Shown here: piece by piece, positions 4,157 through 50,718 of the stretch | Layout of the letters: each line of letters starts with the position of its first letter | How positions within the stretch are numbered: position 1 is the first letter of the stretch | Source of the DNA: an uncultured Clostridia bacterium | GTDB lineage: Bacteria; Bacillota; Clostridia; Christensenellales; UBA1242 | Direction of reading: 5' to 3' | Length of the DNA stretch: 64,000 nucleotides | Assembly: GCA_944348085.1 (NCBI GenBank) | Contig: CALVMU010000001.1 | Location: 1,703-65,702, forward strand | Translations under genes and position numbers: made by a program | The notes under the pieces: model-generated | Seen by the model: only the letters and a program-made list of their open reading frames with translations | The model's database searches: none | Told to the model about the DNA's origin: nothing

Positions 4157-4876
4157 TTATAACAAAAACTCTTTTTGAGCTTTCTGAGCCTGAATTTTGC
4201 CCAATCGGTGCGGAATTTGATAGCGCTTTCCATCTTTGACAAAATTGCTTCCAGTGTCGTAAAATTCAAAGTCAACACCATAACGCTTGCACTGCATTGC
4301 CAAATCTTTAACCCAATCAAAATTCAGTTCTCTTGCGTTTTTATAGTTTTCACCGCCTACTGCAACATGGCTGATTTTGCCAGTTTGAAGATATTTTTCA
4401 ATGTTTATTGCCTCAAGCATTGGCGAGACAATAAGCCCACGATAATCAAGGTCAAGACCAAGCAAAATCGGAATGCGCTCATCTGCGCGTTTTTGATTTT
4501 CAACCGTCACATTTAAATAAAAATTTTTGTAATCCTCTTTAAAATTTTCTGGCAAACTCACCCTTTCAATTCTTTTCGTAATAACCTCAAATTTGACATC
4601 TTGCCTTTGCAAAATCATTTGCCAAACCTTATCACGATAAAGGTCAGCCTCTTCCAAGAAAAAATCACTTGTAAGACACACCATCACATGCGAGCCACTT
4701 TCAAGTTTATATGAACCGTCTCTTTTCTTTTTTACCAGCAAATCAAAATCATTGTTTATGCGAAAAATATTGCTATCAATCCCCCTTTGTTTATCAAAAG
4801 AGAACATATAACAATTTTGACACCCTTCACTCTTTTTGTGACAGCCATGCCACGGATTATACATAAACGATTTCAT
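4157..4876 (-). CDS. Phage Gp37/Gp68-family protein (DUF5131)
   Basis: The N-terminal NPWHGCHKKSEGCQNCY three-Cys motif and the later SDFF / ITKR blocks match the family as I remember it. The start is uncertain (4876 or 4864) and there is no good SD. Confidence 0.7.
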   Translation of the reverse strand: MKSFMYNPWHGCHKKSEGCQNCYMFSFDKQRGIDSNIFRINNDFDLLVKKKRDGSYKLESGSHVMVCLTSDFFLEEADLYRDKVWQMILQRQDVKFEVITKRIERVSLPENFKEDYKNFYLNVTVENQKRADERIPILLGLDLDYRGLIVSPMLEAINIEKYLQTGKISHVAVGGENYKNARELNFDWVKDLAMQCKRYGVDFEFYDTGSNFVKDGKRYQIPHRLGKIQAQKAQKEFLL

Positions 4877-5075: not shown

Positions 5076-5345
5076 ATGGATGAAAAACAGTTTGCGAGCC
5101 ACATGCTTAAAATTTTGCAAGAAAATATTCAAGATTTCATTTCTTCAAAGCCCGTAATATCTATCAAAAAACCCTTATCTGTTGCGGAATTTGAAAAATT
5201 AAATCTAAATTACAAGAATTTAAAAGCCGAATGCAAAAAACTAAGCATTAATGTTTCAAAAAGAACTTACAAAAAACAGCCCTATATCTTTTTTCAATAT
5301 TTTAACCCTCAATATATGTCTGAGAAAAATAAAATAATATTATAA
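5076..5345 (+). CDS. Hypothetical small Lys-rich protein
   Basis: 89-aa ORF with an AAGGAGG SD 7 nt upstream. No recognisable motif. Confidence 0.55.
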   Translation: MDEKQFASHMLKILQENIQDFISSKPVISIKKPLSVAEFEKLNLNYKNLKAECKKLSINVSKRTYKKQPYIFFQYFNPQYMSEKNKIIL

Positions 5346-5355
5346 AGGAGAAACT

Positions 5356-5550
5356 ATGAGAACATTATTTGATATTTTAGACGAACAGAAACAATTAATT
5401 GAAAAATGCTATGACATTCAACAAGAAGAGCTTAAAAACAACGCACCTTTAAAACAACAAAAACGAACATACAGAGAATTTCAAAAACAAATGAAAAAAC
5501 TTGAAAAAGAAGAAAAAACATGCCTAAAAAACATGAAAAATAACGCATAA
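5356..5550 (+). CDS. Hypothetical small coiled-coil protein
   Basis: 64-aa ORF with an AAGGAG SD. It is tightly coupled to the preceding ORF. Confidence 0.55.
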   Translation: MRTLFDILDEQKQLIEKCYDIQQEELKNNAPLKQQKRTYREFQKQMKKLEKEEKTCLKNMKNNA

Positions 5551-6022: not shown

Positions 6023-6098
6023 TGGTGCCCTAAGGTGGAATCGAACCACCGACACAAGGATTTTCAGTCCTTTGCTCTACCGACTGAGCTATCAGGGC
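6023..6098 (-). tRNA. tRNA-Phe (GAA)
   Basis: GCCCTGATAGCTCAGTCGGTAGAGCAAAGGACTGAAAATCCTTGTGTCGGTGGTTCGATTCCACCTTAGGGCACCA. Confidence 0.95.
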
Positions 6099-6113
6099 AA
6101 AATCTTTTTTCTG

Positions 6114-6296
6114 TCGATTCCACCTTAACGAAATCGAACCACCGACACAGCTCCGAAAACTACGCTCTCAGGCTACGGTTTGTCAAAGTCAAACCTCTCC
6201 GCCTTCTCTTGTTTCCTCCGCTCCCCAAAAGAACTTCCGTTCTTTCGTGGCCCCCTCTCTCAGTCCTTTGCTTTTGCCGAACTGAGCTATCAGGGC
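6114..6296 (-). repeat. tRNA-Phe-derived structured unit X1 (tRNA 5' half, ~125-nt insert, T-arm 5' part, fold-back); not a functional tRNA
   Basis: It begins with GCCCTGATAGCTCAG...AAAGGACTG, matching tRNA-Phe. The insert starts inside the anticodon loop. It ends with GTGTCGGTGGTTCGATT followed by TTAAGGTGGAATCGA, the rc of the T-loop/acceptor junction. There is no 3' acceptor strand. Confidence 0.75.
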
Positions 6297-6310
6297 ATCA
6301 ATAACATTTT

Positions 6311-6499
6311 TCGATTCATTTTTATAGTGTCATCAGAATCGAACCACCGACACTTGCTCCGAAAATTGTGCTCTAGGCTTTTTGCTTTCAGCAAATTAAG
6401 CCACTTTCGCTCATTTTCTTCGCTTCCCCAAAAGGCTTAACAGCCTTTCGTGGTCCCCCTTAGCAGTCCTTTGCTTTTGCCGACTTAAGCTATCAGGGC
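6311..6499 (-). repeat. tRNA-Phe-derived structured unit X2 (paralog of X1)
   Basis: Same architecture as X1. The long hairpin 6426-6453 differs from the X1 hairpin 6223-6250 by three compensatory base-pair changes. Confidence 0.75.
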
Positions 6500-6522
6500 G
6501 AAATTTTTGACCCTTTGGGTCT

Positions 6523-6599
6523 TGGCGACTCGGATGGGGCTCGAACCCACGACCTCCAGCGTGACAGGCTGGCGTTCTAACCAACTGAACTACCGAGCC
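6523..6599 (-). tRNA. tRNA-Asp (GTC)
   Basis: GGCTCGGTAGTTCAGTTGGTTAGAAC..CCTGTCACG..GGGTTCGAGCCCC..CCGAGTCGCCA. Confidence 0.95.
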
Positions 6600-34648: not shown

Positions 34649-34723
34649 GGCCTCATGGTCAAGCGGTTAAGACACCGCCCTTTCACGGCGGAATCAGGGG
34701 TTCGATTCCCCTTGAGGCTACCA
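34649..34723 (+). tRNA. tRNA-Glu (TTC)
   Basis: GGCCTCATGGTCAAGCGGTTAAGACACCGCCCTTTCACGGCGGAATCAGGGGTTCGATTCCCCTTGAGGCTACCA. Confidence 0.95.
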
Positions 34724-34758: not shown

Positions 34759-34929
34759 GTTACTTTATTTATTAAAAGGAATCGAACCCCGTCTTGTTAG
34801 GGCTCCCGAAAATCGAAAGATTTTTGGGAAGAGGAGCAAACGAGCGCAAGAGCAAGAGTTTTGATAAAAACTTTGCATAAGCGAAGTTTGTGACGAGATT
34901 CCCCTTGAGGCTACCAAAAAAAATTGCGC
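34759..34929 (+). repeat. tRNA-Glu 3' module: anti-T-arm box, conserved hairpin, and a second copy of the tRNA 3' end
   Basis: GGAATCGAACCCC (34777-34789) is the rc of the Glu T arm. The hairpin is CCCGAAAATC-GAAA-GATTTTTGGG (34804-34827). The 33-bp block gattccccttgaggctaccaaaaaaaattgcgc at 34897-34929 is identical to 34704-34736. Confidence 0.8.
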
Positions 34930-35074
34930 TTTTGCCTAGCTACTTCGTAGCGTATGGCACTGGCGCTTATTTTTTTTTGTTGTTTCGCGCCAAACGAAAA
35001 TCGCACAGCGAATTTTGCGCGAACTTGCATAAAGTTTGATAAAAAATTGAGCGAAGAAATCTCTTCGCTTTTTT
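34930..35074 (+). repeat. Second repeat block: more hairpins plus a third copy of the tRNA-Glu downstream flank and terminator
   Basis: It contains GCTAC-ttc-GTAGC and CGAAAATCGC-aca-GCGAATTTTGCG (same hairpin family). The sequence aaaaaattgAgcgaagaaatctcttcgcttttttgtt at 35041-35077 matches 34725-34761 with one mismatch. Confidence 0.7.
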
Positions 35075-42684: not shown

Positions 42685-44106
42685 TTAATGTTTTTTATTC
42701 AATTTTTTTATAAGCCTTTCCTTATCTTTCTGCACCTCTGTCTTTTTTGTCGTGAAAGCCTTGTCCTGATTTAAACTGACAAGATAATATCTCATTTCGT
42801 CAAGGCAGTGGTCATCTTTTTTTATAGGAAGGTCGTCGTCACCCCACCAATATGATTTGATTTCACGAATAAGATTGACGCAATTTTTGAAAATATACAG
42901 ATGCGTTTTTCCATTTGCATCACAAAGATAACGCTTTACAATGTTGATGCCAGTAAACATATCTTTATTCACTCGCGGATTTGTCAAAATGCCATTTTCA
43001 TAGAAAAGTTCCACCACGTTTTTGGTGCTGGCAAGCGTTTTTTGAGTTGCCGCACTGTCAATAAGCGCCTCCAAAAAGCCATTTCGGTTGGTTTTCCAGC
43101 CAAGACGCGAGGCAATCTCTTTGATCTTTTGAGCATGCCAGTCAACCTCTTTGCCTTTTTCATAATGCTCAGCAATCACATAGACATTGCCGTCATAGTC
43201 GCGCGCATAAAAGTGAGCAGAAAGCGGATTGTTGAGTCCTGGGTCGATTGAGATGTTGTCTTGCCAATCTTTTGGAATTTCAAATGGCTCTATCACATGT
43301 TTGTTTTCATCAAAACTGTTATACACAAGTCCGCCACATTGCATAAATTTTCCATAACGCCTGCTTTCCAGCTCTTCCGCCGAAATGGAAGCGCTCATCT
43401 CTTCAATTTCCTTTTGAGAAAGATATGGGTTGTCCGCCCATTCCATTTGAATGGTCCAAACATTTTCGTCATTATGCTCGTTGAGATAGATTTCGTTATA
43501 CACCCAAGTAAGCCCTTTAAGCGGAGTCATTGTTCCAAAAATTTCGCCACTCCGATCAAGAACTCTCATTTTGCATTCCAAATATATGTCATAAGGCGGT
43601 TCTTCATCAAACCAAACAAAATCGAGCGAAGTGCCTTGAAATTTTTCTCTGCCCTGATCGCAACTTTTGAAGCCAATTTTGCTCAGCGAGCCAAAAACAT
43701 TGCGCACCAAAATAAAATCAATCACGCCACTTTCGGCGCTGTCTTGCCTGCCTTTTGCCATCACAATTTTTTCAATCCACTGCTTTTTTAAGTAGTGAAG
43801 CACTTTGGCCTGCGCGACATCGCGTTGAACTTGTTTTGACAAACTGACAACCCAGCAAGAAATTGGCTTGTTTTTTCGATATGGATGAATGCCACGCGCA
43901 AGATAAACTGTTTCCACAGCACCACACTCAGTTTTTCCAGAGCGATTTCCACCAAAAACCCAGCGGTTTTTCTTCTGGCATTTGTGAAATTCAAGTTGTT
44001 TTTTATGGATTTTTTCACCGCTGTTATATTGCGATAAAAAATCATCTTTTTTTCTTTCTTTGATTTCTTCTTTAACTAGTTTAAGTTTATATTTCAATTC
44101 ATTCAT
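42685..44106 (-). CDS. Phage terminase large subunit (apparently intact, orphan)
   Basis: Walker A GGNRSGKTECG, Walker B LDFVWFDEEP, coupling motif GTMTP, and nuclease Asp motifs ISIDPG / DDHCLDEMRYY. The start was moved to MNELKY (AGGTGA SD). Confidence 0.8.
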   Translation of the reverse strand: MNELKYKLKLVKEEIKERKKDDFLSQYNSGEKIHKKQLEFHKCQKKNRWVFGGNRSGKTECGAVETVYLARGIHPYRKNKPISCWVVSLSKQVQRDVAQAKVLHYLKKQWIEKIVMAKGRQDSAESGVIDFILVRNVFGSLSKIGFKSCDQGREKFQGTSLDFVWFDEEPPYDIYLECKMRVLDRSGEIFGTMTPLKGLTWVYNEIYLNEHNDENVWTIQMEWADNPYLSQKEIEEMSASISAEELESRRYGKFMQCGGLVYNSFDENKHVIEPFEIPKDWQDNISIDPGLNNPLSAHFYARDYDGNVYVIAEHYEKGKEVDWHAQKIKEIASRLGWKTNRNGFLEALIDSAATQKTLASTKNVVELFYENGILTNPRVNKDMFTGINIVKRYLCDANGKTHLYIFKNCVNLIREIKSYWWGDDDLPIKKDDHCLDEMRYYLVSLNQDKAFTTKKTEVQKDKERLIKKLNKKH

Positions 44107-44194
44107 TTTTTCACCTGTCAAAATAAGATATTTAGCTTGTTTTTTCGACAAAAAATGGTTAACAATAAAAAATTTTAAAATTTAAAATAAAATC

Positions 44195-44995
44195 ATGATT
44201 AAAAAAATGTGTTTTATAGTTTTAGGTTTATCTCTATTTTGTGCATTTTTTGGCTTCTTCCAGCCTGCAAATGCAAGCGAAAGCATAAGCTATTATGCAA
44301 AAGTTGAAGAAAGCGGAGTCTATTTCTATTCAAATCCAATAGATGACGAAACCAGCAAGCTTTTTATTTTGCCTCAGACATATTTTGTCTATCTGACCGA
44401 CGAGGAAAATGAAAACTTTTATGTCGCACAATATAAAGATGTCTATGGCTATGTGCGAAAACAAGATGTGGTCGTCATGAACGGAACTCCGTCTGTGCCT
44501 TTCGCCAGCCGAAATTTTACAATCAAAGATTTAGATGGACTTTCTCTTTACCCTTCCCCTAGTTTTTCAAACAACACAAGCCTTGCAAAAATTGATTATC
44601 TGACCATCGTCTCGTCATATTATGGCGACATGCCTGGTGAAAATATTCCTGACCTAAACAGCCCATGGTTTTATTGCAAAGTTGTTCAAGATGATGCAAC
44701 TTTGTTTGGCTATGTTTATTCTGACTCATGCTATCGAATCAGCACCATTTCGCCAAATACCGAAAGCTTTGAAATTGTCTCTTCGCCAAGTTTTGATGTT
44801 TCGCAAGGTCAAGAGGCCTCGCTGAGCGAAGTTGCAATGGCATTTATTGTGATTGGCGTTTCTTTGCCTTGCATTCTTATAATCTATCTGCTTATAAAAC
44901 CAAGCCTGCAAAAATCAAAACCTTCACCTTCCAAAAAGAAAGTGCGCAAACGCCACGGTGACTATTTTGAATTTGATGAAAACGACTTAAACTAA
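44195..44995 (+). CDS. Secreted protein with two SH3b-like domains and a C-terminal TM anchor
   Basis: Signal peptide, then YAKV..SGVYFYSNP..YV.KQDV patterns repeated twice. Hydrophobic helix AMAFIVIGVSLPCILIIYLLI. Confidence 0.55.
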   Translation: MIKKMCFIVLGLSLFCAFFGFFQPANASESISYYAKVEESGVYFYSNPIDDETSKLFILPQTYFVYLTDEENENFYVAQYKDVYGYVRKQDVVVMNGTPSVPFASRNFTIKDLDGLSLYPSPSFSNNTSLAKIDYLTIVSSYYGDMPGENIPDLNSPWFYCKVVQDDATLFGYVYSDSCYRISTISPNTESFEIVSSPSFDVSQGQEASLSEVAMAFIVIGVSLPCILIIYLLIKPSLQKSKPSPSKKKVRKRHGDYFEFDENDLN

Positions 44996-44996
44996 G

Positions 44997-45524
44997 CTAG
45001 CCAGCAACAAGTTTTCCCAGTCTGTTTTCGTCAATTTGCACGCTGTCGTCACTCTTTGCAGAAATAAGGCGATTGTAAACTTCCATAATCCACTTTTCCG
45101 ACGAAATATAATCAAACAACCTTTTTTCAGAAAAACCCAGTTTGCTCATTTCAACCGAAAAATGCTCAAGCGCTTCATTCAATCTGCGAAAATATGTTCG
45201 TTCTGAAAGATTATGCCTTTTTGCAATGTCAAAACTCTTTTCATTGTCCATATAGCGTTCAATCAAAATTTGTGCCGACAAAATAGGACATGCCTCAAGT
45301 GCCATATCAATCAAAATCTTAAGGTTTATAAGTTTAACCTTGCGCTCCGACAAATTTATAATGTAATCTGCAACTGATGTTATGCTGTTTTCACTTCCTC
45401 CAGAAAGTCCAACATAAAAAGAATTCAAAGCTCGCCTTTCAATCAACCTATCAATTGCATCGGTAATTCTTTCCAAATACCTATCGACCATCAAAACTGT
45501 TTTTGCACATAAATTAAACTTCAT
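44997..45524 (-). CDS. Sigma-70 region-4-like HTH protein (ArpU/RinA-like phage late-gene activator type)
   Basis: ILIERYMDNEKSFDIAKRHNLSERTYFRRLNEALEHF reads as a region-4 HTH. The start was moved to MKFNL (AGGGGGA SD). Confidence 0.5.
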   Translation of the reverse strand: MKFNLCAKTVLMVDRYLERITDAIDRLIERRALNSFYVGLSGGSENSITSVADYIINLSERKVKLINLKILIDMALEACPILSAQILIERYMDNEKSFDIAKRHNLSERTYFRRLNEALEHFSVEMSKLGFSEKRLFDYISSEKWIMEVYNRLISAKSDDSVQIDENRLGKLVAG

Positions 45525-45602
45525 ATTTCCCCCTTTAATACGAAAAAAATTATAAAATTTAAAACAACAATAGTCAATGTTAACTGCCATAAATTTTTAT
45601 AG

Positions 45603-45626: not shown

Positions 45627-45881
45627 CTACAAAAATGCCGTCAATTTGGCGTCAAAATTATGTCAAAAAGGTAAAAAATTCGACATTTTTCGCACAATTT
45701 TAAAATTTTCAAAATTTCACATCAATTTTTTCAATAAAATTATCGAAATTTTGTTTAAATTGAATATAAAAACTTGTCAAAACAAAAAATTTGTGATAGA
45801 ATAAAAGAGCAATCTCAAAGTTTGCATACAAAATCAGCAAACAAACCGAGTGCAAAAAAACAAGTGCTAAACGCACTTAGC

Positions 45882-46013
45882 ACTGCCCTACAAATAAATA
45901 TGCTGGTGTGGCGGCTCGGGGTCCCCAAAAGCTTATAAAGATTTTGGGGTGATCAGTGGCAGACGCACAGACTTAAAGTCCTGTGCGTAAACTAAATAAA
46001 AAGTTTAGTTATT
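45882..46013 (+). repeat. tRNA-Leu(UAA) 5'-half unit with a D-loop hairpin insert (132-bp unit, tandem to the real gene)
   Basis: The head actgccctacaaataaatatGCTGGTGTGGCGG is identical to 46014-46046. The insert hairpin is at 45923-45949. It is followed by ACGCACAG-ACTTAAAGTC-CTGTGCGT, which still displays TAA. There is no T arm and no 3' acceptor strand. Confidence 0.8.
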
Positions 46014-46033
46014 ACTGCCCTACAAATAAATAT

Positions 46034-46119
46034 GCTGGTGTGGCGGAATGGCAGACGCACAGGACTTAAAATCCTGAGGTGGCAACACCGTGTGGGTTCG
46101 ACTCCCACCACCAGCACCA
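46034..46119 (+). tRNA. tRNA-Leu (TAA), class II
   Basis: GCTGGTGTGGCGGAATGGCAGACGCACAGGACTTAAAATCCTGAGGTGGCAACACCGTGTGGGTTCGACTCCCACCACCAGCACCA. Confidence 0.95.
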
Positions 46120-46256
46120 AAGAAAAATCTGCGTGTGAAATGCAGTTTTTTATTCAAATCAAGTGCGCATAAAAGTGGGAGGTGACCCCTTGGGTGAGAC
46201 GGGTTCCCTGAAAATCGTCAGATTTTTAGGGTAAGGCTTCCACCACCAGCACCAAG
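46120..46256 (+). repeat. tRNA-Leu 3' module L1: weak terminator hairpin, degenerate anti-T-arm box, conserved hairpin, second tRNA 3' end
   Basis: GTGGGAGGTGACCCC (46175-46189). Hairpin CCCTGAAAATC-GTCA-GATTTTTAGGG (46206-46231). ccaccaccagcaccaa at 46240-46255 is identical to 46105-46120. L1 is about 90% identical to 50367-50508. Confidence 0.8.
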
Positions 46257-46496
46257 TATACTATACAAAAAGTCTTTTTTTGAAAAGGACTTGACACACT
46301 GCATACAGTGGCTTTGATTGATTTTTGCACTGTATACAGAGTTGGAAGTGACAACATGGCGAAAGATTGGAAGAAAAACAGAAAAAAGTGTCTTATTTAG
46401 GAAAATGAATTTTGATTTTTTTACTTAAAAATTAAATTAAATCAAAAATAATCAAAAATCAAAATAGGTGGTATAATTTTCGTTGAGGTTAAGAAA

Positions 46497-49862: not shown

Positions 49863-49990
49863 TAAAGAAACCTTTGCCCAAATTGCTAAAACAGAATGCC
49901 CCACCCTTTGACTTAACATTCCAAAATATTTACATGTTTTGCGATAAAACACAAACAAAAATCAGGTGCGCAAAATTGATAACTTGATTT

Positions 49991-50124
49991 CTACTGCCCT
50001 ACAATTTAATATGCTGGTGTGGCGGCTCGGGGTCCCCAAAAACTTATAAAGATTTTGGGGTGATCAGTGGCAGACCGACGGCTCAAGAGTCCGTCGCGAA
50101 AACGAAATTGACTTACTTAGTTTT
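49991..50124 (+). repeat. tRNA-Leu(CAA) 5'-half unit, copy 1 (134 bp)
   Basis: Head ctactgccctacaatttaatatGCTGGTGTGGCGG, D-loop insert hairpin at 50034-50060, anticodon-like hairpin CGACGG-CTCAAGAGT-CCGTCG, and tail hairpin GAAAAC..GTTTTC. Confidence 0.8.
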
Positions 50125-50258
50125 CTACTGCCCTACAATTTTATATGCTGGTGTGGCGGTTCGGGGTCCCCAAAAGCTTATAAAGGTTTTGGGGTGATCA
50201 GTGGCAGACCGACGGCTCAAGAGTCCGTCGCGAAAACGAAATTGACTTACTTAGTTTT
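50125..50258 (+). repeat. tRNA-Leu(CAA) 5'-half unit, copy 2 (134 bp)
   Basis: Near-identical to copy 1, with a handful of substitutions. Its hairpin is at 50168-50194. Confidence 0.8.
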
Positions 50259-50280
50259 CTACTGCCCTACAATTTTATAT

Positions 50281-50366
50281 GCTGGTGTGGCGGAATGGCA
50301 GACGCGACGGACTCAAAATCCGTTGAGGGCAACTTCATGTGGGTTCGACTCCCACCACCAGCACCA
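50281..50366 (+). tRNA. tRNA-Leu (CAA), class II
   Basis: GCTGGTGTGGCGGAATGGCAGACGCGACGGACTCAAAATCCGTTGAGGGCAACTTCATGTGGGTTCGACTCCCACCACCAGCACCA. Confidence 0.95.
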
Positions 50367-50508
50367 AGAAAAAATCTGCGTGTAAAATGCAGTTTTTTTA
50401 TTTAAATCAAATGCACATAAAATGTGGGAGTCGAACCCTTGGGTGAGACGGGTTCCCTGAAAATCGCCAGATTTTTAGGGTAAGGCTTCCACCACCAGCA
50501 CCAAGAAA
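50367..50508 (+). repeat. tRNA-Leu 3' module L2: exact anti-T-arm box, conserved hairpins, second tRNA 3' end
   Basis: GTGGGAGTCGAACCC (50424-50438) is the rc of the T arm GGGTTCGACTCCCAC. The hairpin is at 50455-50480. The 20-bp block ccaccaccagcaccaagaaa at 50489-50508 is identical to 50352-50371. Confidence 0.85.
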
Positions 50509-50718
50509 GAATAATCCAAACTAACGGATTGTTTTTTTATTATGAAAATTTAAAGCAACCAAGATATTTGCGCTATTTTATTTCTTTTTTCCAAAAATTA
50601 TAGTAAAATATCAATATAAAATTGATATTGACAATTAATCATAAAAATTGGCAAAATAAAAAACTTAGCAGAATTGAAGACGACTGGCACGCATCACTTC
50701 AAATGCTAAGTTTTTTGT

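Follow-up and report, generated by a model that had tools for sequence, protein, structure and literature searches.

Truncated tRNA copies beside a clostridial tRNA-Leu(CAA) gene carry a widespread, apparently undescribed structured element

Rickettsia palindromic elements (RPEs) are structured sequences of ~100–150 bp that occur between genes, within RNA genes and in frame within ORFs; we know of no established means by which these and similar palindromic elements are mobilised. A comparable family of elements is represented in the 64-kb stretch of DNA analysed here (the window). Uncultured gut Clostridia and their phages carry it widely, and it has apparently not been described so far. Like RPEs, the element is structured, occupies intergenic, RNA-gene and in-frame ORF sites, and is sporadic among homologues. 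Unlike them, it has a strong sense-strand bias involving G-U pairs and a conserved asymmetric sequence, and at essential genes it is accompanied by an antisense segment that spans the insertion junction and by a duplicated gene end of 60–90 nt; to our knowledge, neither of these accompaniments has a counterpart in RPEs.

The central locus lies at 49,988–50,538, where two truncated 5' copies of a tRNA gene (units) are followed by an intact tRNA-Leu(CAA) with its terminator and then by one truncated 3' copy (within the downstream module). We lean, somewhat past even, towards seeing the units as by-products of a non-autonomous mobile structured element whose survival in essential genes is confined to redundant partial copies; the array is probably not a tRNA-half system. 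The element has a short form, hp1 (~35–45 nt, with a GGGG-U-CCCC... hairpin), and a long form of ~105 nt that consists of hp1, GAGAGGAG, a second irregular hairpin and a terminal ...GACGA. The covariance model cited below was trained on long cores only.

49976..50005, + strand: putative promoter-like site, the outermost, 5' of unit 1 (TTGATA, 18-nt spacer, TACAAT; 10/12 in a consensus scan)
49988..50121, + strand: unit 1, consisting of upstream region, tRNA positions 1–13, hp1 and tRNA positions 16–44 (long-core covariance model at 50029–50107, 27.9 bits, E = 4e-7)
50122..50255, + strand: unit 2, a further truncated 5' copy with 97% identity to unit 1 (covariance model at 50163–50241, 27.4 bits)
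50013–50025 and 50147–50159, + strand: tRNA positions 1–13 in the units, read from the sequence
50026..50067, + strand: 42-nt hp1 in the D loop of unit 1, replacing the D-loop AA (hairpin 50034–50060)
50160..50201, + strand: 42-nt hp1 in the D loop of unit 2 (hairpin 50168–50194)
50068..50098, + strand: tRNA positions 16–44 of unit 1, TGGCAGAC and then a re-paired anticodon-arm hairpin, CGACGG/CCGTCG
50202–50232, + strand: tRNA positions 16–44 of unit 2, of the same make-up
50099..50146, + strand: duplication junction and copied upstream region of the gene, from alignment (TTGACT in the GAAAAC/GTTTTC loop; TACAAT at 50134–50139)
50233–50280, + strand: second copy of the duplication junction and upstream region, from alignment
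50281..50366, + strand: intact tRNA-Leu(CAA); no other gene of the array looks functional (ARAGORN; Rfam tRNA, 61.2 bits)
50376..50399, + strand: intrinsic terminator of the tRNA, which in relatives also precedes each module
50424..50438, + strand: inverted T-arm copy, the antisense segment (15/15 reverse complement of 50341–50355)
50450..50480, + strand: hp1 of the downstream module, in the T loop of the truncated 3' tRNA copy (covariance model at 50450–50508, 17.1 bits)
50478..50508, + strand: duplicated gene end: T arm (3' half, degraded), acceptor 3' strand, CCA and 5 flanking nt (86% over 35 nt against 50341–50375)
50513..50538, + strand: second terminator-like hairpin and T run that closes the module, read from the sequence and folding in prediction

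The 134-bp array with its head in three copies, as described in a first-pass annotation of this DNA, is reproduced almost to the base: TRF reports a tandem repeat at 49973–50293 (period 134, 2.4 copies, 95% matches, score 586), a repeat search gives the units (49988–50121 and 50122–50255) 97% identity to each other, and a 38-nt head occurs three times at exact 134-nt spacing. Each unit runs from ~45 nt 5' of the tRNA start through tRNA position 44 and has neither T arm nor 3' acceptor strand, as had been stated. Only the third copy is a normal tRNA, again as stated, with 50281–50366 as the sole tRNA call in the array (Leu-CAA); neither the units nor the downstream module match RF00005 even at E<=10, and ARAGORN calls nothing in them. 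The 42-nt D-loop inserts and their hairpins also proved to be as described, the 40-nt insert pattern occurring three times against 0.00 expected in shuffles. In unit 1, TGGCAGAC (50068–50075) is followed by CGACGG-CTCAAGAGT-CCGTCG (50076–50096) and GAAAAC-N16-GTTTTC (50098–50125). The last of these had been listed as a component of the unit; it is present, but as a duplicate of the gene's own upstream region rather than as a new motif, and its 16-nt loop contains the TTGACT box of the internal promoter-like sites, which read TTGACT-N20-TACAAT. Transcription from these upstream promoter copies probably continues into the tRNA, and the units themselves are not expected to yield a functional tRNA half. 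The head motif CTACTGCCCTACAAT was also considered as an anti-D-arm guide; its similarity is only ~8/12 and it stands as well 5' of a tRNA without units (L005), and it is therefore treated as promoter region. A clear anti-D segment occurs in L019 and L043 only.

The earlier reading that the region fits no tRNA, CRISPR, TIR-bearing MITE, attC or riboswitch holds good. Regular repeats with unique spacers, the mark of CRISPR, are absent, the 134-bp unit being tRNA-derived sequence. The pieces do not make up a split or permuted tRNA, as the unit covers positions 1–44 with a disrupted D loop, the module covers 49–76 with a disrupted T loop and further degradation, and the variable arm is missing; inspection by eye shows neither complementarity nor a bulge-helix-bulge between unit tail and module leader. 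The ends of the element, GGGGTCCCC... and ...GACGA, are not inverted repeats as in MITEs, and its simple insertions show no short duplication. Several further candidates were set aside. Read as a tRNA on the minus strand, the module has a T stem of only 3 bp; tmRNA and permuted tmRNA gave weak matches only (E = 0.14–0.18); on inspection, no K-turn, CRISPR or Cas12a repeat, or hammerhead, HDV or pistol core fits; the peptides of a small ORF at a GAGGAG-plus-start region are unconserved, and the small ORFs in the units encode 14 aa at one locus and 6 aa at the other.

Downstream of the tRNA, the exact inverted copy of the T arm, the hairpin at 50455–50480 and the second copy of the tRNA 3' end were each verified. 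The last 20 nt of this duplicated gene end are identical to the tRNA (50489–50508 = 50352–50371) and form a direct repeat of the att type at the tRNA 3' segment. What had been missed is that the 42-nt insert belongs to a widespread structured family, which is carried by three more tRNA loci in the window: arrays akin to the CAA array adjoin tRNA-Leu(TAA), tRNA-Glu and tRNA-Phe, the TAA locus having been exposed by a third copy of the insert.

45881..46257, + strand: paralogous array at tRNA-Leu(TAA) (covariance model, 31.6 and 16.5 bits)
34783..34930, + strand: long-form module 3' of tRNA-Glu(TTC) (covariance model, 60.4 bits, E = 1e-17)
6120..6500, - strand: two tRNA-Phe-like units 5' of tRNA-Phe (covariance model, 29.0 and 21.8 bits)

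The TAA array is built of one 5' unit with a TAA hairpin, tRNA-Leu(TAA) at 46034–46119, a terminator and a module at 46175–46257. The Glu module comprises, in order, an inverted T arm, a long core of ~98 nt (34800–34897) and a duplicated tRNA 3' end. Each tRNA-Phe-like unit joins tRNA positions 1–34, a variant of the long core and positions 42–58, and the tRNA-proximal one terminates in an inverted T-loop piece (GGTGGAATCGAC). In the 64 kb, the long-core model finds exactly 8 copies, all on the strand of the tRNA, and nothing else below E = 0.01 on the sense strand. Antisense segments are present 3' of Glu and Met genes and, in a different layout, 5' of tRNA-Phe; the copy at a Thr gene is heavily degraded in L056 and was not found in L016. 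The junctions lie at tRNA positions 13/16, 34/42, 44/49 and 57/58, all in loops of the folded RNA, and thus in the D, anticodon and variable loops as well as in the T loop. Two proposals of the first-pass annotation concern the T arm. One was a recombination that uses the T arm as its core site; a rearrangement at the DNA level stands, and the core site finds no support, given the other loops and the protein-gene ends without a T arm. The second was a cis element pairing with the T arm; in Leu, Glu, Met and Phe alike, the inverted T arm does follow the T arm of its own tRNA, yet an intrinsic terminator precedes it and the copy at the paralogous locus is degraded.

The number of units varies from 0 to 3 among close strains, and more distant relatives also carry units and modules:

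This window: CAA, 2 units; TAA, 1 unit
L146 (97% relative): CAA, 1 unit; TAA, 2–3 units
L005 (94% relative): CAA tRNA missing at the locus, downstream module kept; TAA, 0 units
L001 (69% relative): CAA, 2 units and 2 modules; TAA, 2 units and 2 modules

The units nonetheless stay matched to their neighbours. Their hairpins bear the anticodon stem of their own tRNA (the TAA version at the TAA locus), and at locus B of L001 the acceptor stem GCCGATG/CATCGGC is shared by the tRNA, both units and the module. Such matching of acceptor and anticodon parts reflects concerted evolution and need not mean that the anticodon is displayed for a function. Several metagenome contigs end at these tRNA loci.

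A use of these RNAs by the host would see the tRNA-derived units and modules expressed as decoys for nucleases or modification enzymes, as T-arm antisense regulators, or as halves joined via GCUGGUG/CACCAGC. The units, hp1 included, are ~95% identical across genomes in which the flanking protein is only 69% identical and nearby intergenic DNA is unalignable, a strong conservation that extends across genera; this is compatible with a host function or with recent spread. Each unit has a promoter-like site, whereas the whole-unit fold is no better than that of shuffles (z = -1.45); the downstream module does fold better (z = -4.9), yet it sits behind the terminator without a consistent promoter. 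The predicted read-through transcript would pair the T arm with its inverted copy and the 5' acceptor strand with the distal 3' copy, although the inverted T arm is degraded at the TAA locus (12/15). Unit and module numbers are often similar; against this, close strains differ by 0 to 3 copies and the module is mostly lost in L146. Further, an identical architecture at the ends of rpsI and rpsU and in phages has nothing to do with tRNA. We thus consider a host function decidedly unlikely.

A simpler account would have tRNA tandem duplicates decaying after they picked up an unrelated REP-like hairpin. The earlier reading had taken a fixed copy number as a sign of plain decay, and the number varies among strains; tandem repeats of 95–97% identity in variable numbers are nevertheless what duplication would leave, and gene conversion accounts for the matching acceptor and anticodon parts. 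What makes this account highly improbable is that the same element recurs at the same D-loop position in the Leu-TAG, Leu-CAG, Leu-CAA and Leu-TAA arrays of different lineages, that the module geometry is repeated at unrelated genes, and that hp1 is conserved far beyond neutral DNA.

The breadth of the family is apparent from pattern searches. The hp1 pattern has matches in 95 stretches of species-representative genomes, about 25% of which have a tRNA on the same strand within 400 nt, and the long form is found in 42 viral contigs and more than 120 metagenome stretches. Its conserved sequence is asymmetric (GGGGUCCCC ... GGGGAGAGGAG ... GACGA), and hp1 and helix P2 contain many compensatory pairs, the kind of change that had been named as evidence against simple decay. 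The sense strand folds at -44.9 kcal/mol and the antisense strand at -34.5; the sense strand is the more stable in 46/47 copies, with 137 G-U pairs. Together with the GGGG block, this amounts to the one-strand hairpin with a conserved 5' block known from REP and PATE elements. Insertion sites are scattered and non-homologous: in tRNAs the D, anticodon and T loops, in rpsI and rpsU the last ~25 nt, and in addition phage intergenic sites and ORF interiors. Close homologues of these sites lack the element, as do the homologues in phages Javan105, NatCom_19828, NatCom_43819 and Javan308. In one case (L077) it is seen at the P3 position of RNase P RNA; elsewhere, tandem hp1 copies spaced ~10 nt apart occur, with clusters in L048 and L022. 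The element has no match at or near gathering score to an Rfam 15 family; intron and ribozyme covariance models gave none at E<=10 in two window regions and none at gathering score in 18 loci; and Rfam searches of the CAA locus, the Glu module and 18 related loci returned only tRNAs, a SAM riboswitch and Gut-1. When the region was compared with phage and plasmid collections by BLAST, the tRNA alone gave matches, and literature searches by sequence string and by concept yielded nothing relevant to the element.

A search for an integrase, among other enzymes, co-occurring with the modules had been suggested. By Pfam, no integrase is encoded by the 10 ORFs at 35.7–48.4 kb of the window; there is none in the gene tables for the rest of the ~10 kb around orthologous loci, and no enrichment of recombinases, transposases or reverse transcriptases among the 141 ORFs flanking hp1 matches elsewhere, which also include no RAYT or TnpA gene; in the whole window, these classes are likewise not enriched among the best 25 Pfam families listed. 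The Pfam gene-neighbourhood searches gave two REP_ORF2-G2P matches. The element flanks have no common target motif and no target-site duplication of usual size. These results weigh on the possibility that the locus holds remnants of integrase att sites, left by repeated integration and decay at the tRNA gene as a cis-mobilisable accretion. Direct repeats of the tRNA 3' end do flank the module, relatives carry gene cassettes exactly at the CCA end with short direct repeats (a GNAT gene in L005, a 223-aa ORF in L146), and relatives also have the two tRNA-Leu loci rearranged with respect to one another. Such an origin is still very unlikely, as no integrase lies within ~10 kb in this window or at the orthologous loci, integration at the 3' end cannot produce 5' units, and modules with always the same structured core are found at protein-gene ends too.

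At the ends of rpsI and rpsU and at tRNA 3' ends, the element lies between a 13–19-nt antisense copy across the junction and a duplicated gene end, the duplicated segment extending for a constant 60–90 nt from the junction to the transcript end. This geometry is the same at rpsI, rpsU and other protein genes, where there is no T arm, and the antisense segment in rpsI follows species-specific synonymous differences. Essential tRNA and ribosomal-protein genes retain a rescue copy. Within ORFs, insertions in metK (111 nt), a PAPS-reductase-like gene (105 nt) and a tape-measure gene (111 nt) are in frame and free of stops, and out-of-frame copies fall in the portal tail or in the Dcm gene, which is often further degraded.

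The phage genes bring in a different possibility, namely that the ~105-nt core is a very small intron of a new kind that acts at the RNA level and either splices itself or is cut and ligated enzymatically. To spread, it would insert where abundant RNAs expose loops or ends, and the cDNA would then recombine; the antisense segment would be a guide pairing with both exon ends, like P1/P10 of group I introns, and the tRNA units and modules would be partial retro-copies, genomic fossils of chimeric RNAs. The case for it begins with the sense-strand-constrained, RNA-type structure with its G-U pairs, the position of every tRNA junction in a loop, and the guide-like antisense that spans the junction and follows the rpsI differences. 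In six fairly intact Dcm alleles, the core is 107 or 108 nt long, the 107-nt form has an in-frame stop, and core differences are compensatory. Immediately downstream of the core, pN/pS is 0.24 in the Dcm frame vs 1.0–1.2 in the other two frames (0.12–0.18 further downstream), and without the core and with a one-base frame shift made by hand 29 codons downstream, one Pfam DNA_methylase match spans the junction (predicted exon join ...CCUCCGUAC(G)|GGGUAUGAUGUG). In the portal gene, removal of GGGG...GACGAC (104, 104 and 105 nt; two sites) restores the frame and the exact length of uninterrupted homologues, with the tail frame open to the conserved end (predicted join ...ACGCUUCU|GAAGGAUGCC).

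Other observations count against it. Five of the eight Dcm alleles have further frameshifts or stops; synonymous divergence is lower near the core, and the element may be a recent arrival by recombination, with a selection signal that may predate it; and the portal tail overlaps the protease gene. A length of 105 nt is far under that of any known self-splicing intron, and no Rfam intron or ribozyme model matches. The group I-type rule (5' splice site preceded by U, intron ending in G) fits some junctions and fails in L111, L108 and Dcm. Across cases, the last base of the 5' exon is U, C or A and the position of the 3' boundary varies by 1–2 nt, and no consistent rule for the splice sites emerges. 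Translational bypass with matched take-off and landing codons was also tried; it fits Dcm (GGG...GGG) and fails with the portal alleles. The 5' units, moreover, contain DNA upstream of the apparent promoter. If the element were removed from RNA, rescue copies would be unnecessary, whereas these duplications and the excess of in-frame, stop-free insertions are expected if it is not removed. An intervening element is thus possible yet unlikely, and the same doubtful standing applies to the fuller proposition that the GGGGUCCCC...GACGA core is a new class of ~105-nt intervening RNA, removed by its own catalysis or a host pathway and moving via an antisense guide.

Taking the element instead as a non-autonomous mobile insertion, its arrival in an essential single-copy gene would persist only where an additional, partial copy of the gene end houses it and an intact copy is kept. 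What would be left are the units, as 5' fragments preceded by a promoter, and the module, as a 3' fragment followed by a terminator. The constant geometry of antisense across the junction, element and duplicated segment to the transcript end suggests that duplication is coupled to insertion, possibly through Campbell-type integration of a small intermediate with target-derived sequence, or through template switching. Later unequal crossing-over would alter the number of units, and gene conversion with the adjacent tRNA would hold their acceptor and anticodon-stem parts identical to it. Against such a mobile origin, the antisense segment and the 60–90-nt duplication fit no known transposition chemistry; an element acting purely as DNA would not usually show so strong an RNA-type structure on its sense strand; the conservation of the units between genomes, given above, would suit a host function as well as recent spread; purifying selection on the exons beside the element in phage Dcm hints at removal from RNA; and the ORFs searched near the loci include no transposase, integrase or reverse transcriptase, nor does the element have TIRs, a target duplication of usual size or a common target motif.

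If the mobile origin is correct, human-gut Clostridia and their phages harbour an abundant, unannotated, structured mobile family that remodels tRNA and ribosomal-protein loci, interrupts metagenome assemblies at the former, and leaves tRNA pseudo-halves that will mislead tRNA and sRNA annotation. It would represent an unusual lifestyle of a selfish element, residing in essential genes inside a redundant copy of the gene end, and the junction-spanning antisense and fixed duplicated length would point to an insertion mechanism undescribed for bacterial elements. Were the intron-like account to hold, a new class of minimal intervening RNA would be at hand, of relevance to RNA catalysis and RNA-guided engineering.

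Several known systems share parts of this picture. As in archaeal intron-containing and split tRNA genes (Nanoarchaeum), interruptions fall in the D, anticodon, variable and T loops and there are separate 5' and 3' pieces; here, however, the host is bacterial, the pieces (to 44, from 49) give no full tRNA, and an intact tRNA lies between them. Integrative elements at tRNA 3' ends (CIME-type remnants) similarly leave a tRNA 3' end duplicated downstream, and the CCA end is a hot spot for cassettes in relatives; in contrast, there is no integrase here, the repeat interval is only ~137 bp, 5' fragments occur too, and the core is also present at non-tRNA genes. Group I introns likewise occupy tRNA loops and phage structural and DNA-metabolism genes, have a guide-like complement to the ligated exon junction (here in the gene-end modules), and are flanked by less diverged exons in a manner resembling co-conversion; they are at least ~200 nt long against ~105 nt here, and the present element has no P3–P9 core and no Rfam hit and does not consistently follow the U-before-5'-site/G-last rule. 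The rRNA intervening sequences excised by RNase III are also extended hairpins in loops of structured RNAs, the counterparts here being tRNA loops and P3 of RNase P RNA, whereas the present elements are in non-functional gene fragments and in mRNAs as well. With REP/BIME sequences (RAYT, IS200/IS605-type Y1) and PATEs, the element shares a short hairpin after a conserved tetranucleotide-like block (GGGG), a location after highly expressed genes in the same orientation, tandem clusters and one-strand folding. It departs from them in having neither RAYT/TnpA among the 141 flanking ORFs nor a common target tetranucleotide. A second conserved hairpin is present in its long form, and the element enters genes and is tied to partial gene duplication.

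The tRNA-Leu(CAA) gene stands among truncated copies of itself. The 134-bp period noted upstream of it in the first-pass annotation was recovered by Tandem Repeats Finder (49973-50293, 2.4 copies, 95% matches, score 586), and a repeat search delimits two units, i.e., truncated 5' copies carrying an insert, at 49988-50121 and 50122-50255 (97% identity); a 38-nt head occurs three times at a spacing of exactly 134 nt. The sole tRNA is indeed that at 50281-50366, called as Leu-CAA by ARAGORN with 61.2 bits against the Rfam tRNA model, which matches neither unit even at E<=10. As read from the sequence, each unit comprises, in order:

tRNA positions 1-13: start of the tRNA-derived part
50026-50067 and 50160-50201: the 42-nt D-loop insert, as had been described, in place of AA
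after the insert: TGGCAGAC
3' part of the unit: re-paired anticodon-arm hairpin, then the tail

The downstream module, a truncated 3' copy, likewise bears out what had been reported: 50424-50438 is the perfect reverse complement of the T arm in the repeat search, a strong hairpin lies at 50455-50480, and the sequence at 50352-50371 recurs at 50489-50508. Compared with shuffled sequences, the module has a much more favourable fold (z = -4.9) and the unit does not (z = -1.45). The unit tail is not a new motif: when both units and the paralogous locus are aligned with the tRNA and the DNA before it, the tail proves to be a duplicate of the region upstream of the tRNA gene. Each unit repeats the gene head to tail, beginning ~45 nt before the tRNA start (just 5' of a TTGAYW box) and ending at tRNA position 44. 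A TTGACT box lies inside the GAAAAC/GTTTTC loop, with TACAAT following, and the best promoter-like site in a consensus scan is the outermost copy (TTGATA, 18-nt spacer, TACAAT).

A third occurrence of the 40-nt insert pattern in the window, at 45917 (expected 0.00), belongs to a paralogue that has a single unit, tRNA-Leu(TAA) at 46034-46119, and then the same terminator and module as the CAA locus; here the anticodon stem of the unit hairpin is the TAA version, and the inverted T arm has only 12 of 15 matches. To the left of this array, 42685-45590 holds a lone large-terminase gene (Terminase_6N/6C), a 197-aa HTH ORF and a 266-aa ORF, an arrangement kept in three related genomes (L001, L005, L146). 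The window further carries copies related to the long core of the element—hp1, its short hairpin form, plus a second hairpin and ...GACGA:

34649-34723, + strand: tRNA-Glu(TTC), followed by a terminator and the long-form module
34783-34930, + strand: that module, i.e., inverted T arm, ~98-nt structured core, and a repeat of the tRNA 3' end that includes 13 nt of flank
6098-6523, - strand: between tRNA-Asp and tRNA-Phe, a pair of tRNA-Phe-like units of ~213 nt each

Each Phe unit consists of tRNA-Phe positions 1-34, a ~110-nt long-core variant (GGGGGCCACGAAAG...GGGGAGCGGAGGAAACA...GUUUUCGGAG), and positions 42-58, and an inverted T-loop piece forms the end of the tRNA-proximal unit. A covariance model trained only on long inserts from other genomes matched, across the 64-kb window, exactly the Leu, Glu and Phe copies, all on the strand of the adjacent tRNA: the Glu module best (60.4 bits), then the Leu units (27-32 bits), the Phe units (29 and 22 bits) and the Leu modules (16-17 bits). 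Rfam families gave no match to the element at this locus, in the Glu module or at 18 related loci. Among 47 distinct long cores, RNAalifold, run on 17, recovered hp1 together with a second helix, P2, and many compensatory base pairs; the gene-sense strand has a mean folding energy of -44.9 kcal/mol against -34.5 for the antisense, is the more stable in 46 of the 47, and has 137 G-U pairs. In its long form the element is thus structurally conserved on the sense strand.

Orthologous loci, found through the flanking SbcC-like protein (its identity in brackets), show that the type of arrangement is conserved and the copy number is not:

L001 (69%): both Leu loci with two units and two modules each, and a terminator copy before each module
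L003 (51%): one unit and one module, both degraded
L005 (94%): Leu-TAA without a unit; a GNAT cassette exactly at the CCA end
L146 (97%): CAA with one unit where the window has two, TAA with two to three where the window has one

Unit number changes on the time scale of strains. Between the window and L001 the units, insert included, are ~95% identical, and the array-adjacent intergenic DNA is unalignable. At locus B of L001 the acceptor stem is GCCGATG/CATCGGC with matching strands in both units and the module, so that the tRNA-derived parts have been homogenised with the neighbouring tRNA. In L146 the module is mostly lost, with a 1.3-kb cassette at the Leu-CAA CCA end. Such gene cassettes lie exactly at tRNA-Leu CCA ends in close relatives (L005 9900-10700, - strand; L146 8665-11000, - strand); the direct repeat of the GNAT cassette is CCAGCACCA, and that of L146 carries a 223-aa ORF and starts with TCGGCGAAAACGGCATT..., a start also found after a Leu-AAG module of another genus (L012 ~4400-4560, - strand).

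A degenerate hp1 pattern finds 95 stretches in one-genome-per-species contigs, mostly of uncultured Clostridia with some from other phyla, and roughly one in four has a same-strand tRNA within 400 nt (Leu with five anticodons, Glu, Thr, Met). The same D-loop position is occupied in 5' units of Leu-TAG (L019, L043; at least three units) and, with two hairpins, of Leu-CAG (L069). In the short downstream modules an inverted T arm comes first; after 2 nt follows the 5' part of the sense T arm, with hp1 placed in the T loop, and beyond hp1 the remaining T-arm sequence leads into the acceptor 3' strand, CCA, flank and terminator. The long form occurs in 42 viral contigs and, among the matches listed, at least 120 metagenome stretches. 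Its phage sites differ (portal/protease, terminase/next gene, HNH/small terminase, and within tape-measure, Dcm and PAPS-reductase-like genes), homologous phages lack it, and an unclassified metagenome contig has a copy within metK. The 141 ORFs flanking hp1 matches show no enrichment of recombinases or transposases; two match REP_ORF2-G2P, a protein that acts in the rolling-circle replication of ssDNA phages. One Oscillospiraceae genome, SIG634, has hp1 within mosaic arrays of 100-300-bp repeats at 12 or more loci (L015, L033, L037, L044, L070, L076, L080, L082, L089, L093, L101 among them), and intergenic tandem clusters of two to four hp1-type hairpins ~8-10 nt apart (L048 ~5340-5520, - strand; L022, L025, L057, L065, L096) resemble BIME-like REP clusters. 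In a Candidatus Woesebacteria contig (L077 2221-2253, - strand) hp1 lies directly 5' of GGAAAGUCC, where RNase P RNA helix P3 is expected, between flanks CGGGGUCCCCAAAA..GAUUUUGGGGUGAUCAG identical to those in tRNA-Leu units; Rfam calls no RNase P there at gathering score.

The module architecture is not specific to tRNAs. It recurs at rpsI (three species), rpsU and other genes: after the gene, its stop codon and its terminator comes an antisense gene copy of 13-19 nt (up to 27 nt) that spans a junction J, then hp1, GAGAGGAG, the second hairpin, ...GACGA, and a sense gene copy extending from J to the terminator end. An automated check found this direct- and inverted-repeat pattern in ~20 loci, with constant geometry: the antisense target lies immediately 5' of the start of the duplicated segment (60-90 nt), overlapping it by 0-7 nt. 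In rpsI, species-specific synonymous differences are mirrored in the antisense segment. The palindromes GTGCAC, GCGC, AGCT, TCGA and TGATCA coincide with insertion/duplication junctions (rpsI in L009, L088 and L092, rpsU in L027, tRNA T loops, the hp1 3' flank). Since tRNA junctions always fall in loops of the folded molecule, often in the first four of these palindromes, the sequences point to events on a folded single strand, RNA or sense-strand DNA.

Two cases suggest, neither conclusively, that the element might be removed from RNA. The portal ORF is interrupted at either of two sites, ~50 codons from its end, and deleting GGGG...GACGAC (104, 104, 105 nt) restores the frame and the exact length of uninterrupted homologues (NGNM-TLLK(D/N)-AG against NGNM-TKLED-AG), with the tail open up to the conserved ...HRRGKLV end; that tail, however, overlaps the protease gene. 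In Dcm, where six fairly intact alleles have cores of 107 or 108 nt that differ in a compensatory manner, pN/pS over the 29 codons after the core is 0.24 when read in the Dcm frame and 1.0-1.2 in the others (0.12-0.18 far downstream), and once the core is removed a single Pfam DNA_methylase match crosses its junction, given a one-base frame shift applied by hand 29 codons downstream. Yet five of the eight alleles have other frameshifts or stops, and synonymous divergence has its minimum beside the core, suggesting that recombination has spread the element recently. No boundary rule is uniform across cases. The insertions in metK, PAPS-reductase-like and tape-measure genes are in frame and stop-free (111, 105, 111 nt), and a rescue copy is retained at essential tRNA and ribosomal-protein genes; these last two facts are what one would expect if the element is not removed. 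The +1 frame change ~29 codons downstream of the Dcm core falls at a conserved CUU-AGA-G in at least five alleles (L195, L202, L182, L102 and related loci), motif VIII (...RVFIIGYL) continuing as EDNVPEKYYLS... in the next frame; because the site resembles the Ty1-type CUU-AGG-C site, it may be programmed frameshifting, or else a shared lesion. The metK (S-adenosylmethionine synthetase) core of 111 nt lies just before GAGDQG (L217 5830-5940, - strand; L265 867-977, + strand); in L265 the sequence beyond the metK 5' part and core is unrelated, and the copy may be a 5' fragment unit derived from a protein gene.

These findings are most economically explained by a structured, non-autonomous mobile element combined with survivorship. 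It would insert simply where the site is dispensable; in essential ORFs only in-frame, stop-free copies would last, and an essential single-copy gene would carry it only in a redundant partial copy of that gene. The result would be 5' fragments on the upstream side (the units) and 3' fragments on the downstream side (the module). Copy number would then change by unequal crossing-over and gene conversion, which would also keep acceptor and anticodon parts matched. Both the antisense segment across the junction and the constant length of the duplicated stretch suggest that the insertion event includes the duplication. That the element is a categorically new intervening RNA appears unlikely. It shares tRNA-end duplication with integrative elements, and it lacks defining features of MITEs, integrase att sites, CRISPR arrays, split tRNA genes and group I/II introns; for this reason, and because its closest counterparts in way of working are the RPE- or REP-type small palindromic insertion elements, it is filed as a small non-autonomous structured insertion element of a variant not seen before.
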